From a virus (Duplodnaviria; Heunggongvirae; Uroviricota; Caudoviricetes), in the IMG/VR virus record IMGVR_UViG_2667527789_000010: 13,352 bases of DNA; one strand, given 5' to 3'. The number at the start of each line of letters is the position of its first letter. Position 1 is the stretch's first letter. The position numbers and the translations under genes were made by a program. Positions 1,826 to 12,300 of the stretch are shown in pieces. A model generated the notes under the pieces. The model was not told the DNA's origin. It ran no database searches and was given only the letters and a program-made list of their open reading frames with translations.

Positions 1826-2106
1826 GAGATTGTGGTGCTTTTTGTGGGAGTCATCCACTTACGCACTTTGTTTTGCGATGCCAGCAGTTAGCTTCTGCTG
1901 TGAAACTATTCATGCAGCAAACCTGCACTTCACCACAATGGTTAGCATACTTTTCCTGATTAAGATTTTGCCAAATATGCTAGCCATTGTTTCATGTATT
2001 GGACCTCCTTACTTTTTATTAAAGAGATCCAATATTCACTACTCTGTCCGTATCTCTACTCAGGCATCAGCCTTCTTCGTTATCGTATACAGACGAGCGA
2101 TGAATT

Positions 2107-2322
2107 TTAATCAGTAATGATGACATTTGCTGCTGCAGGACCTTTAGCACCACTCTCTATAGAGAAGGTAACCTTTTGACCTTCAAATAAGGTTCGATAA
2201 TTATCATTCTGAATCGCAGAAAAATGCACAAACACATCTTTACTACCATCAACAGGAGAAATAAAGCCGAAACCTTTATCAGCGTTAAACCATTTTACTA
2301 AACCAGTCATTTTATTTGACAT
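2107..2322 (-). CDS. cspB: Cold-shock protein CspB (CspA family, 71 aa)
   Basis: [71 protein letters not shown] has the RNP1 (KGFGFI) and RNP2 (VFVHF) motifs. SD AAGGAA upstream of the ATG at 2320-2322. Confidence 0.9.
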
Positions 2323-2480
2323 TCTACATTCCTTAACTTGAGCCTTTCGGCATAAATGGTTTGCATAACAGAAACGACTTCGTACTTAATTGGAGAGACT
2401 CAAAGAAGGAATAAGTGAATAACACCTGAAATGAGAACTGCTTTAGTAAACTACTTCGTATATCGTCTGTTCTTCAAACC
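2323..2480 (-). promoter_or_regulatory. cspB long 5' UTR with cold-box-like element
   Basis: About 160 nt of non-coding leader upstream of cspB. Minus strand contains TGAAGAACAGACGA (complement of about 2464-2477), resembling the cspA-family cold box UGACGUACAGA. The promoter itself was not pinned down. Confidence 0.4.
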
Positions 2481-2620
2481 GACGCAGTCATTAACTCATA
2501 GTTGAACATATGAAGCAATGTTTATTTTAGACATCCAGCCACCTTCAATCCTATCAAAAAAGTAGTTTTCTCCAGGAACGTGTGTATGGTGCACCAGGTT
2601 ATCAGTATTAAGGAGTTTTT

Positions 2621-5159: not shown

Positions 5160-5411
5160 TTATTCTTCTGCAAAAGCTAAAAAGCCTGCTTTTATTCCGA
5201 TCTCTTTCAGTGCCTGTAATGAAGTGACAAACTCACCTTCGCGCAAGATAAATCCGTCTGTCACTCGACCATCCACAAAATTAATTAACGCAGCCCCATT
5301 CTTTCGCAAACACATAATGCGGTAATGACTAACAAGATTTCCATTTTCAACGCACACAGCATAGAGGCCATCTTCACAAAAAATTTTACGCAATTCTTCG
5401 ATGTTCATCAT
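5160..5411 (-). CDS. Hypothetical protein (83 aa), unknown function
   Basis: ATG at 5409-5411 with SD GGAAGGA. Product MMNIEELRKIFCEDGLYAVCVENGNLVSHYRIMCLRKNGAALINFVDGRVTDGFILREGEFVTSLQALKEIGIKAGFLAFAEE. First gene after the hok terminator. Confidence 0.5.
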   Translation of the reverse strand: MMNIEELRKIFCEDGLYAVCVENGNLVSHYRIMCLRKNGAALINFVDGRVTDGFILREGEFVTSLQALKEIGIKAGFLAFAEE

Positions 5412-5530
5412 CAGAATCCTTCCGGATAATTAGCTCTCCCCTTTAAGGGACCATCCCTCTTATCCCTGCGCGCTACTTAAGTATTTTTGATTCTATTCCG
5501 GCACCGTCCAGAACTTCAAACGCGTTGAAA

Positions 5531-5559
5531 ATAAAAACAAAAACCCGCCGAAGCGGGTT
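5531..5559 (-). terminator. Rho-independent terminator of the hok transcript
   Basis: AACCCGC-CGAA-GCGGGTT hairpin (5542-5559). On the minus strand it is followed by TTTTTGTTTTTATTTT. A second hairpin GGCGAGGGA-TTTC-TCCCTCGCC (5599-5620) lies between the hok stop and this terminator and may be the 3' fold-back element of hok mRNAs. Confidence 0.6.
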
Positions 5560-5627
5560 AAGTGCGGGTGCGTTGAGGATGCCTGCCACATCAGAGGTGG
5601 CGAGGGATTTCTCCCTCGCCGGGTTTC

Positions 5628-5783
5628 TTACTCCTCAGGTTCGTAAGCTGTGAAGACAGCGACCTCCGTCTGGCCGGTTCGGATTCGTACCTCGCAGAGG
5701 TCTTTCCTCGTTACCAGTGCCGTCACTATGACGGTTAAACAGATGACGATCAGGGCGATTAACATCGCCTTTTGCTGCTTCAT
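5628..5783 (-). CDS. hokD: Hok-family type I toxin (51 aa), HokD-like
   Basis: MKQQKAMLIALIVICLTVIVTALVTRKDLCEVRIRTGQTEVAVFTAYEPEE: single TM helix plus the conserved Hok C-terminal region. SD AAGGAG lies 9 nt upstream of the ATG at 5781-5783. Confidence 0.85.
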   Translation of the reverse strand: MKQQKAMLIALIVICLTVIVTALVTRKDLCEVRIRTGQTEVAVFTAYEPEE

Positions 5784-5840
5784 AGCCTGCTTCTCCTTGC
5801 CTTTCGGCACGTAAGAGGCTAACCTACATATGTCTAGCAT
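5628..5840 (-). CDS. Mok-like reading frame (in-frame 19-codon N-terminal extension of hok)
   Basis: ATG at 5838-5840 with no SD gives MLDICRLASYVPKGKEKQA fused in frame to Hok. This resembles the chromosomal mok/hok arrangement in which mok shares the hok stop; that arrangement is recalled, not checked. Confidence 0.4.
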   Translation of the reverse strand: MLDICRLASYVPKGKEKQAMKQQKAMLIALIVICLTVIVTALVTRKDLCEVRIRTGQTEVAVFTAYEPEE

Positions 5841-5958
5841 GAAATTGGCCTCAGATTAATGTTAAGCGTCTTGCAGGACGCGTAATGTTAACTGGGGCTT
5901 TTCTCTATCTGCCGTTGGTGTTCATGCCCGAGGCAGATAGCCTCAAGCACCCGCAGCC

Positions 5959-5987
5959 ATTCTACTTAACTACCGTTACCTCGCCAA
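5959..5987 (-). promoter_or_regulatory. Candidate sigma70 promoter of the hok/mok transcript
   Basis: Minus strand reads TTGGCG, a 17-nt spacer, then TAGAAT (complement of 5982-5987 and 5959-5964). The predicted transcript from about 5951 to the terminator at about 5540 is roughly 410 nt, the size class of hok mRNAs. Confidence 0.4.
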
Positions 5988-6457
5988 TGTGAAATCAGTC
6001 AGAAAGGCGATCCATAAGAACAATAGCAAGACAATAAATCGCCATTACAGCCGTAATAGCCAGCGCACATTTGAGAACCAGCACCACAACCTCCTGTATT
6101 GGACGTAGACCAGTCCTGATGAATATGAGGCTGTCTCGTCAGTGATTCAATACAACTATTGGGTATAGTTTCTCTGATTTTTTCTGTGGAAATGGGGCAC
6201 AACCACTAGTCACCACCAGCACTTCTTTTAATACGCAAAGTCCGACACAAGCTAACCTTCTAGTCCGCTTTGAGCGAAAAACAGCCATAATTTAGTGCCA
6301 CGTATATAATGATAGAGCTATTCAAGCTAGCAATTCACATGTAAAAATTCAGAGGGTAGAAGCACATAGTTATAAATGTTGGCTCCATCGACAAATTGCG
6401 GTCTCAAGTACATTTATTAATGTTGCCCCCGCATTAACAAATCATCAAGGTGACGAC

Positions 6458-8245
6458 ATGGACGATATTAATATCAGCCTCGACGAACTTAACACTATTG
6501 ATTTATCCCCCTTAATCCAGAGTAAGCTGCCAGTTACCTGCTTTGATATCACAAAGTATCTTTCTAGCCTAGGTGATGGAAGAGCGGAGATAAGACTGCT
6601 AACCCATATTTGCGGTTTTCACTTTCGTCCCGAAAATCCACAGGTACCATTTGGTCCGTGCTTTCAAAGCAGCCAAGGTAGATCTGCAATTCCGGATGAC
6701 ATTAACGGGTTGTCGCTGGAGGTACTTTCTCAATTTTGCCCGACGATAGAGCTACCCGAACTTCAAGCTCGTATTGCTGATACACTTTGGGTTCGTAAAA
6801 TTGGTGGAATCCGTTTTCCTTTGCTGGCAGTCCGTGCTTATTATGCGTCCAGTATAGCTATTATGACATCGCAAGGGACGTGGGTTAGTGCTTTAGAACG
6901 CCTAGAGCGTGCGCTTAGGCTGTGTTGTTTTTTTCGAAAGCATACTGATTTCAGGGATGAATTTGATCAGCTTTCGGCACATCTACTAGCAGAGTATGAA
7001 CGTACCAGAGAACAAGGCGATTCACCTTATCCGCTGCGACTCCTGCAACTCGATATCGACTGTAAAGTGAGTGAGCCATCTTTTATTGCCCAGGAACTCC
7101 TGTTTCTGACAAAAAACTATCTGGCTCAAAAATTATTTTCATTTGCCGTCGATGCCTGTAAAACCGCAATCCCGATTGCGAATAGGTGCTGTGACAGAGA
7201 TACACAGTTTGAATTCTGGCGGCTTCTTGCCGATACACATCTGGAAGAGTCAAAATTCCAAGATGGCGGTATGATTTCGGCAGCCTGCATGCAGAATGCT
7301 ATTGAAGCACTGGCTAATATTCCAGGAACCCGAATAGAACGTCTTGCGCTGTATGAAGAAATGCGTGATTACCAAATCGAATCCCGTCACCAGATGTCTA
7401 TCCTTCAGTCTCCCCCTCAAGATATTAGTGAGATTGTCCATCAAGCCAAGAGTCGGGTAGTCGGAAGAGATTTGTTTGATATGGTTTTCAGACTTGCGAT
7501 GCTGGTCTGTCGGCCAACCAGCATTGAGAGACTTAAGGCTCAAGCAATAGAACAAAAGGCCAACAGCATAGCTTGGATGTTTGGATCAACACATATTGAT
7601 CATGAGGGAATGACACTTGCTCGCATACCCGCAGGATTGGGGATTGATGATGCAAATGGGGCAGTTATTTGGCCCATAATGATGACGAGAATGCGTATCG
7701 ACCATGAGTTGGCAGTAGCTGGGCAAATTATTCCTGCTACAGATGAGATCACAATGAAATATCCAATCTCGGAGGCGTTTTTTCGCGATATGTTCATCAA
7801 TCATCCCTTCATCCCGTTTGGGCATGAAGAGTTTTTCATCAAGGGTATGGTTTGCGGTTTCAATGGAGATTTTATGACGGCATGCCACGTGTTGATTCCC
7901 CAGCTCGAAAATAGTCTGAGATATGTGGCTAAAATTAAAGGTGAGGAACCATCGCAGCTTCACGGGGACGGTTCGCAAGAGCGAAATGGACTCAAGGGAT
8001 TACTAGATAATCCACTGATTATTGAAGCTTTCGGCGTAGACATAATTGGCAATCTTCAGGCCTTACTGGTAGATAAAATCTATGGTGATTTACGAAATCA
8101 ACTAGCTCACGGATATGTGCCTGCCGGTTACTACAATCAACCTCCCTGCATTTTTGCATGGTGGCTTGTATTGCACATTCTAATGAACCCTACGGCGAGA
8201 TACTGGCAAGCCACTTATGGCCAAGAGAGTGAGGCTCAGACTTAA
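6458..8245 (+). CDS. Large hypothetical protein (595 aa) with C-terminal HEPN-type R-x4-H motif; candidate defence/abortive-infection nuclease
   Basis: Unambiguous 1788-nt ORF with SD AAGGTG 5 nt upstream of the ATG. It is the only long plus-strand gene in an otherwise minus-strand block. Lower GC by eye (about 40-47%) and E. coli-rare codons (AGA, AGG, ATA, CTA). C-terminus contains GDLRNQLAHG; a second R-x5-H occurs at RDMFINH. No Walker A motif seen. Confidence 0.8.
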   Translation: MDDINISLDELNTIDLSPLIQSKLPVTCFDITKYLSSLGDGRAEIRLLTHICGFHFRPENPQVPFGPCFQSSQGRSAIPDDINGLSLEVLSQFCPTIELPELQARIADTLWVRKIGGIRFPLLAVRAYYASSIAIMTSQGTWVSALERLERALRLCCFFRKHTDFRDEFDQLSAHLLAEYERTREQGDSPYPLRLLQLDIDCKVSEPSFIAQELLFLTKNYLAQKLFSFAVDACKTAIPIANRCCDRDTQFEFWRLLADTHLEESKFQDGGMISAACMQNAIEALANIPGTRIERLALYEEMRDYQIESRHQMSILQSPPQDISEIVHQAKSRVVGRDLFDMVFRLAMLVCRPTSIERLKAQAIEQKANSIAWMFGSTHIDHEGMTLARIPAGLGIDDANGAVIWPIMMTRMRIDHELAVAGQIIPATDEITMKYPISEAFFRDMFINHPFIPFGHEEFFIKGMVCGFNGDFMTACHVLIPQLENSLRYVAKIKGEEPSQLHGDGSQERNGLKGLLDNPLIIEAFGVDIIGNLQALLVDKIYGDLRNQLAHGYVPAGYYNQPPCIFAWWLVLHILMNPTARYWQATYGQESEAQT

Positions 8246-12244: not shown

Positions 12245-12300
12245 TTTCTGGTGACGTTTGGCGGTATCAGTTTTACTCCGTGACTGCTCTGCCGCCGTTT
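12245..12300 (+). ncRNA. dicF: DicF small RNA (division-inhibiting sRNA targeting ftsZ) with intrinsic terminator
   Basis: tttctggtgacgtttggcggtatcagttttactccgtgactgctctgccgcc followed by gtttt matches my recollection of the 53-nt DicF sequence. The 3' GGCGG...CCGCC stem plus U-tract forms a terminator. Located between the ydfB/C region and dicB as in the K-12 operon. Confidence 0.75.

Follow-up and report, generated by a model that had tools for sequence, protein, structure and literature searches.

Does the hok gene of a lambdoid prophage bring its own RNA regulation with it, or is it a leftover of the relBE-hokD operon known from Escherichia coli K-12? We examined this question in a DNA stretch of 13,352 nucleotides (nt), hereafter the window, from the Caudoviricetes record IMGVR_UViG_2667527789_000010 of IMG/VR. 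An earlier sequence-only reading of this DNA had proposed a self-contained hok/mok type I toxin locus with a Sok-like antisense promoter. We found that positions 5537-5987 very likely constitute a complete type I toxin-antitoxin cassette, hok/mok/sok, belonging to the HokD/HokW clade. This confidence covers what the cassette is and how its regulation is organized; that in any single physiological role is much lower. The cassette itself is already known, being a textbook RNA-regulated toxin system, and its clade has been annotated in phage 933W and tested in phage Sp5; it therefore carries little weight as a discovery. Coordinates of the features are collected in Table 1.

The toxin belongs to the Hok/Gef family, whose members are hydrophobic proteins of about 50 amino acids (aa) with a Hok/Gef domain. 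It matched Pfam family HOK_GEF (PF01848) with an E-value of 2.9e-23 and a score of 81.6 bits (cut-off 22), and the Prokaryotic Genome Annotation Pipeline (PGAP) names it HokD (WP_000813254.1). Expression of HokD, whose protein is identical to that of the window, is toxic (bioRxiv 10.1101/2025.08.07.668861). The mok frame, which matched PHROG 251 (“MokW-like host killing”) with an E-value of 7.6e-33, starts upstream of hok and overlaps it, as is typical of the family, and has its own Shine-Dalgarno sequence (SD), GAGG at 5852-5849, located 8 nt ahead of the mok AUG (5840-5838). Besides, the codon for Tyr47 of hok (UAC, 5643-5645, minus strand) was observed in the context GCUUACGAA, a UACG motif of the TadA type. 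Low-level A-to-I editing at this position of hokD recodes Tyr to Cys, a residue which other Hok proteins have encoded in their DNA (PMC12214031).

Upstream of hok, the sequence and structure of the leader conserved in the Hok/Gef family were present in full. Rfam model RF01794 was matched over its whole length (model positions 1-157 of 157; window 5952..5778, minus strand) with 112.7 bits (gathering score 59) and an E-value of 1.7e-25. This family is named “sok”, yet the match is on the strand of the hok mRNA, and the same was observed for six other hok loci scanned. Since the model spans the hok leader as far as the hok AUG, we rejected the match as a sense-strand small RNA gene; it identifies the leader and does not put the antisense gene on this strand. 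The first matched position, 5952, is 6 nt past the -10 hexamer of the predicted hok promoter and is thus the likely transcription start. The promoter had 9 of 12 consensus matches in the motif scan, and its -10 hexamer was aligned with TAGAAT, TATAAT and TAGGAT of hokW, hokC and hokB, respectively.

Folding of the predicted 416-nt mRNA gave a minimum free energy (MFE) of -170.3 kcal/mol (z = -7.3 compared with dinucleotide shuffles). In this structure the first 12 nt, tac, were paired with fbi (5578-5566) near the 3' end, with pair probabilities of 0.97-1.0. This is the 5'-3' fold-back that closes the full-length mRNA in the Hok/Gef family, and a fold for tac/fbi pairing was among the checks proposed in the sequence-only reading. 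The energy of the tac-fbi duplex was matched by 22 of 2,000 shuffled 3' tails. In the same closed fold, the mok SD region (GAGGC, 5852-5848) was paired with GCCCC of ucb (5898-5894). An alternative fold, in which tac (5952-5945) pairs with ucb (5900-5894) and encloses the leader hairpin of 9 base pairs (bp), is the consensus structure of Rfam and, with RNAalifold, of eight hok leaders; it is also the MFE structure of the first 63 nt. We took this active fold from the Rfam and RNAalifold consensus and not from MFE folds of truncated RNAs.

Comparison among hok loci showed that these pairings have been preserved while the sequences changed. With the eight loci, RNAalifold recovered the tac-ucb stem and the inner hairpin, and 5 of the 32 predicted pairs had compensatory changes; three pairs of the leader hairpin showed such double changes. 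In the hairpin of the 3' untranslated region (UTR), pair 5616/5603 is A-U in the window and G-C in hokW, also a compensatory change. Similarly, the tac and fbi of K-12 hokB (GGGUGCCUGAGA and UCUCAUGGCACCC) and those of an IncF plasmid hok (GGCGCUUGAGGCU and AGCCUGAAGCGCC) differ from the elements of the window yet are complementary to each other, and in both loci fbi follows the 5' end at a distance of about 345-385 nt, the same relative position as in the window. For example, a U-to-C change at position 7 of the hokB tac is matched by A-to-G changes in both fbi and ucb (columns 11/75). This is the classic covariation signature of a single element with two alternative partners.

On the opposite strand, the features of a cis-encoded Sok gene of the Hok/Gef type were recognized in the sequence, namely a promoter within the hok SD/mok region, a free 5' tail, a hairpin serving as terminator and a stretch complementary to the start of mok. 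The ends of the predicted Sok RNA were placed by analogy, since the annotated sokW and sokC each overlap mok by 9 nt. Its fold comprised an unpaired 5' tail of 15 nt (GUCUAGCAUGAAAUU), a long hairpin (5847-5899) and then UUUUCUCU, which includes a U-run. Compared with the Rfam consensus, a 16-nt insertion lengthens this hairpin; the insertion is common to hokW and to plasmid and chromosomal copies of the hokD type. Over its 29 nt the sok promoter matches that of sokW in 933W/Sp5 with 100% identity, and we regard the candidate as real by this homology. In the study of sokW, mutation of its -10 (“pro-less”, primers YO-421/422, AGGTTA to CGGCTC on the mRNA strand) abolished protection (PMC8621323), and the hexamer changed there is the same TAACCT that forms the sok -10 of the window. 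The loop of the Sok-target hairpin has the U-turn motif of the family, YUNR, as CUAG at 5837-5834. A defining role of this motif was reportedly described by Franch and colleagues in 1999.

The recognition sequence in the window is not of the sokW type: of the 15 nt that form the Sok recognition tail and the target loop, five differ from SokW, and the differences cluster within 5832-5852, whereas no difference exists in tac, in fbi or in the sok promoter. The Sok of the window and SokW are therefore probably separate antitoxin specificities, as far as sequence can tell; that the two loci belong to one clade is clear from their 93.5% identity. This clustering at the recognition site is the pattern that one would expect if co-resident hok/sok copies diversify in specificity, which would fit the up to nine places per genome that match 5400-6100.

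Table 1. Coordinates of the hok/mok/sok cassette and of its upstream neighbors in the window
Feature	Coordinates	Strand	Details	Basis
hok promoter	5959..5987	-	-35 TTGGCG 5987-5982, 17-nt spacer, -10 TAGAAT 5964-5959	Motif scan, alignment
Predicted full-length hok mRNA	5537..5952	-	About 416 nt	5' end, start of Rfam model; 3' end, terminator
tac	5941..5952	-	GGGUGCUUGAGG; 5' end of mRNA, nt 1-12	Pairs with fbi in MFE structure and with ucb in consensus
Leader hairpin	5905..5940	-	9-bp stem, 18-nt loop; CTATCTGCC 5940-5932 with GGCAGATAG 5913-5905	Sequence; part of first stem of RF01794
ucb	5894..5900	-	AAGCCCC	Pairs with mok SD region in inert fold and with tac in active fold
Sok-target hairpin	5812..5852	-	mok SD 5852-5849, mok AUG 5840-5838, loop CUAGACA	Rfam consensus structure, sequence
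mok frame	5628..5840	-	70 aa, in frame with hok	Open reading frame list, PHROG 251, match to mokW of 933W and mokC of K-12
hok toxin gene (HokD)	5628..5783	-	51 aa	Pfam, PGAP name, K-12 identity
3' UTR hairpin	5599..5620	-	9 bp, GAAA loop; GGCGAGGGA-GAAA-TCCCTCGCC	Sequence; in MFE structure
fbi	5566..5578	-	CCUCAACGCACCC	12 bp and one bulged C with tac
Intrinsic terminator of hok mRNA	5527..5559	-	AACCCGC-TTCG-GCGGGTT 5559-5542, T-run to 5527	Scan
sok promoter (candidate)	5797..5825	+	-35 TTGCCT 5797-5802, 17-nt spacer, -10 TAACCT 5820-5825	Homology to sokW
Predicted Sok antisense RNA	5832..5902	+	About 71 nt	Ends by analogy with sokW (933W) and sokC (K-12)
Very hydrophobic 29-aa ORF	5995-6084, or to 6087 with first GTG	-	MLVLKCALAITAVMAIYCLAIVLMDRLSD	GTG start at 6084, AGGAGG upstream
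DUF7380/DUF4209 protein, hok neighbor	6458-8245	+	Candidate defense gene PDC-S39	PADLOC, E 2.9e-102

All features listed in the sequence-only reading were found at the positions that it gave or no more than one or two bases away. These include the mok-like extension in frame with hok, the minus-strand promoter and the terminator (both also detected by the scan), the candidate plus-strand promoter, an mRNA predicted there at roughly 410 nt, and two hairpins, one in the leader and a GC-rich one following the hok stop, which were both exact. Together with the full RF01794 leader, they support the proposal of a self-contained module.

Several observations weigh against this reading of an intact and working cassette. 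The sok promoter has only 7 of 12 consensus matches, which is below the scan threshold, and its -10 hexamer has only 3 of 6. The scan of the region as a whole returned 2 promoter-like sites compared with 1.8 expected from shuffles, so that hexamers alone were not above chance; the promoter calls consequently rest on homology, and the case for the cassette on homology and structure. When the mRNA was truncated at the 3' side (ends at 5579, 5585 and 5590), the MFE structures were not uniformly the textbook active fold, and two of the three gave the 5' metastable hairpin. The protein also differs in one residue, as HokD has Tyr where other Hok proteins need Cys for a disulfide, and the hokD mRNA is A-to-I edited at only about 6% in K-12 (PMC12214031). 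Because the Sok tail differs from that of SokW, results obtained with sokW transfer to the window by analogy and not by identity. Finally, an intact sequence is no guarantee of killing activity.

If the cassette works as its relatives do, the following pathway, which is the canonical one for hok, may be proposed. Transcription from the hok promoter would yield a stable mRNA in which tac pairs with fbi and ucb sequesters the mok SD, and in this closed fold the mRNA would be neither translated nor bound by Sok. Slow trimming from the 3' end would remove fbi, upon which tac would pair with ucb and the target hairpin, containing the mok SD, the AUG and the U-turn loop, would form. A short-lived Sok of about 71 nt, made from 5832 on the plus strand, would then bind the loop through its free 5' tail, block translation of mok and thus the coupled translation of hok, and trigger cleavage by RNase III. 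Once Sok is no longer synthesized or runs out, the mRNA pool would be translated and the 51-aa Hok would depolarize the inner membrane; prophage induction, loss of the element and transcription shut-off are possible triggers. The sequence and structure elements of this pathway are all present in the window and are closely homologous to tested loci, and from these we infer the transcription, processing, Sok instability and physiological trigger of this copy.

The comparison with K-12 bears directly on whether the locus might instead be a diverged remnant of a relBE-hokD (relBEF) operon that has lost autonomous regulation. In the K-12 Qin prophage, hokD is the third gene after relB and relE, with relE ending 71 nt before the hokD start. 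The HokD name given by PGAP and the near identity of the coding sequence and 3' UTR to those of K-12 would fit a remnant: the coding sequence is identical at the nucleotide level, the 3' UTR differs at two bases, fbi and the terminator are nearly identical, and the downstream neighbors rem, ydfU and ydfT are the same. However, the identity ends 14 nt before the hok ATG (window 5797), beyond which K-12 has relE sequence. The K-12 gene keeps the hok SD and is devoid of the hok promoter, tac, ucb, the mok start, the sok gene and the sok -35, so the sequence-only reading was correct in stating that this copy sits behind relBE without a regulatory region of its own. The window, in contrast, has the full-length Rfam leader upstream of hok, and an alignment to the K-12 region, which the same reading had named as a way to overturn its proposal, revealed no relE-derived sequence there. 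No RelE or RelB was found in the window by tblastn (best E-value 1.7), blastn-short with the K-12 DNA upstream of the breakpoint returned only chance words of 9-10 nt, and the arrangement with relE directly upstream of the hok SD, lacking leader and sok, was absent from the window. We also counted both forms in 5,426 complete E. coli genomes, defining a full leader as coverage of 80% or more of the stretch made up of the promoter, the leader and the 5' end of hok. A full-leader copy was present in 4,030 genomes and the K-12 relE-hokD junction in 1,165, which indicates that the autonomous cassette is the common state and the K-12 arrangement a derived minority form. In view of the full leader and the lack of any RelE/RelB match, we rejected the remnant explanation, which we consider exceedingly improbable. 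Except for hokB, the hok genes of K-12 are believed to have been inactivated, whether through insertion elements (hokA, hokC, hokE) or through rearrangements that removed toxin-antitoxin components (PMC12214031). As PGAP marks hokD in thousands of genomes and does not mark mok, sok or the mRNA elements, the truncated K-12 relBEF form may wrongly seem typical.

For a self-contained cassette, the role most likely would be, by analogy with hokW-sokW, to aid cell lysis and phage release upon induction of the prophage, while prophage retention and abortive infection are possible alternatives that do not exclude it. The cassette could also be intact by sequence and still be a physiologically silent passenger, transcribed and fully repressed, with no function in killing, maintenance or defense. 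Such silence would be consistent with reports that native hokA, hokB and hokC gave neither post-segregational killing nor activation by rifampicin (summarized in bioRxiv 10.1101/2025.08.07.668861), that hok is not enriched near known defense systems (bioRxiv 10.1101/2025.08.07.668861) and that HokD needs low-level RNA editing for its second cysteine (PMC12214031). We nevertheless consider it unlikely, because the regulatory elements have been kept across thousands of genomes and in the active phages mEp460, HannyBb and Tritos, because compensatory changes preserve the tac-fbi, tac-ucb and 3' hairpin pairings, and because the sister locus hokW-sokW has a measurable induction phenotype (PMC8621323). 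We are equally doubtful that abortive infection is the main role, in which case the cassette would be defense cargo of the prophage: a lytic phage would shut off transcription, Sok would decay and Hok would kill the cell first. The adjacent slot does contain defense or candidate defense genes (PDC-S39 here; PDC-S06, HEC-06, PD-T7-1 and an ABC-three-component system elsewhere). In favor of the same role, Pecota and Wood are said to have observed in 1996 that R1 hok/sok partially excludes T4. On the other hand, a survey of Hok showed no general association with defense systems (bioRxiv 10.1101/2025.08.07.668861), and hokW-sokW aids the release of its own resident phage (PMC8621323), although these roles are not exclusive.

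Positions 5400-6100 (701 nt) were 100% identical to the chromosome of E. coli ATCC 25922 and of many other strains, and matched 1,085 E. coli genome records with at least 99% identity. According to the ATCC 25922 annotation, the cassette is inside a Qin-like lambdoid prophage, where the genes on the hok strand are, in order, a dicC-like cro, ydaT, a replication gene, a DUF977 gene, hokD, rem, a hypothetical gene, ydfU, ydfT (Q-like), cspB and lysis genes, with a single plus-strand gene between the DUF977 gene and hokD. We place the cassette in the early-right (nin-like) part of a Qin/mEp460-like lambdoid prophage. In the window, Rfam searches also identified a cspA-type thermoregulator leader upstream of cspB (2091-2483, minus strand, 158.8 bits) and the DicF small RNA (12246-12297, plus strand, 72.5 bits), both of which fit a Qin-like prophage. 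A promoter-like site (TTGAAG-18-TAGAAT, 5490-5519, minus strand) directly follows the hok terminator and precedes rem (5411..5160), for which it may serve as promoter.

Just upstream of the cassette is a very hydrophobic 29-aa open reading frame (ORF), which ends 8 nt before the hok -35. This ORF was intact in seven copies with 78-100% nucleotide identity, among which many changes were synonymous or conservative. It occurred in 1,879 of the 5,426 E. coli genomes and in four phages, and in one genome it was present without hok. PGAP almost never annotates it; a look-up of the exact sequence returned only “hypothetical protein”, and searches against Pfam, NCBIfam and PHROGs gave no match. The window and mEp460 share a conserved stretch of about 190 nt upstream of the ORF, and in both the cargo gene is on the opposite strand. 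A 49-aa ORF at 6139-6288 (minus strand) was also considered and rejected as probably not coding, since mEp460 has a 14-nt deletion inside this otherwise conserved stretch.

We surveyed the slot flanked by the DUF977 gene and hok in nine elements, comprising seven non-K-12 strains (one of them a phage), a second phage and K-12. Seven of the nine had each a different cargo matching PADLOC: PDC-S39 (the window), PDC-S06, PDC-M68B (ABC-three-component), SIR2, a PD-T7-3-like protein (DUF4145), HEC-06 (DUF262) and PD-T7-1 (phage mEp460). The slot was occupied by relBE, ydfV and flxA in K-12; phage HannyBb instead had a gene annotated as DNA methyltransferase, along with hypothetical genes, upstream of hok. 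Tentatively, and with more doubt than belief, one may propose that the hokD-type cassette and the 29-aa ORF form the fixed right-hand border of a defense-gene hotspot in Qin/mEp460-like lambdoid prophages. In the strongest form of this idea, hok/sok or the 29-aa ORF would be tied to the cargo in function, for example as a stabilizer or a back-up abortive-infection arm, and K-12 relBEF would then represent a single cargo insertion running into hok. The variable slot and the 29-aa ORF may repay follow-up more than the cassette itself.

Among known systems, the archetype is hok/sok (parB) of the R1/IncF plasmids, which follows the same regulatory logic and for which post-segregational killing is established. 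The IncF plasmid copy had a full-length RF01794 match (106.6 bits) and, immediately ahead of a terminator, a complementary tac/fbi pair of its own. It differs from the window in that it is plasmid-borne and that its mok, which carries the annotation DUF5431, is not in frame with hok and terminates within it. The archetype toxin is distant in sequence, with 44% identity between HokW and R1 Hok (PMC8621323). The K-12 loci hokC/mokC/sokC (gef) and hokB/mokB/sokB also had full-length RF01794 leaders (118.3 and 109.7 bits, respectively) and the same order of elements as the window, but are more distant paralogues without the 16-nt insertion in the Sok hairpin. mokC is in frame with hokC, as in the window, and is overlapped by sokC over 9 nt, whereas mokB is out of frame with hokB; K-12 hokC has IS186 beside its 3' end.

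Closer relatives were found in phages, where 110 records of the phage collection matched the locus. The copies of mEp460 (99.4%) and HannyBb (99.1%) are annotated as MokW or MokW-like. The closest locus with a known phenotype is hokW-mokW-sokW of 933W and Sp5 (VT2-Sakai), which is 93.5% identical to the window over 416 nt; the 933W/VT2-Sakai records carry annotations for mokW, hokW and the antisense RNA sokW. Like the window, it belongs to a lambdoid prophage and codes for an in-frame Mok of 70 aa and a Hok of 51 aa, with a 71-nt Sok overlapping mok by 9 nt, and its tac, fbi and sok promoter are 100% identical to those described above. Homology to 933W spans 5971-5556, beginning at the -10 and ending shortly beyond fbi, and that to a plasmid hokD copy spans 5964-5566; the conserved block is thus essentially the transcription unit. 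The two loci differ in the -35 region and in the sequence following fbi, including the terminator, which are unrelated between 933W and the window, and in four of the eight C-terminal residues of the toxin. Their positions are different as well, hokW being near the right end of the 933W record and the hok of the window between the replication and Q genes. Takada et al. showed that HokW arrests growth, that sokW counteracts it and that this antitoxin effect needs RNase III and Hfq (PMC8621323). In the same study, sokW disappeared upon mitomycin C induction, HokW was made in a RecA-dependent manner, and phage release was halved without the hokW-sokW locus (PMC8621323).

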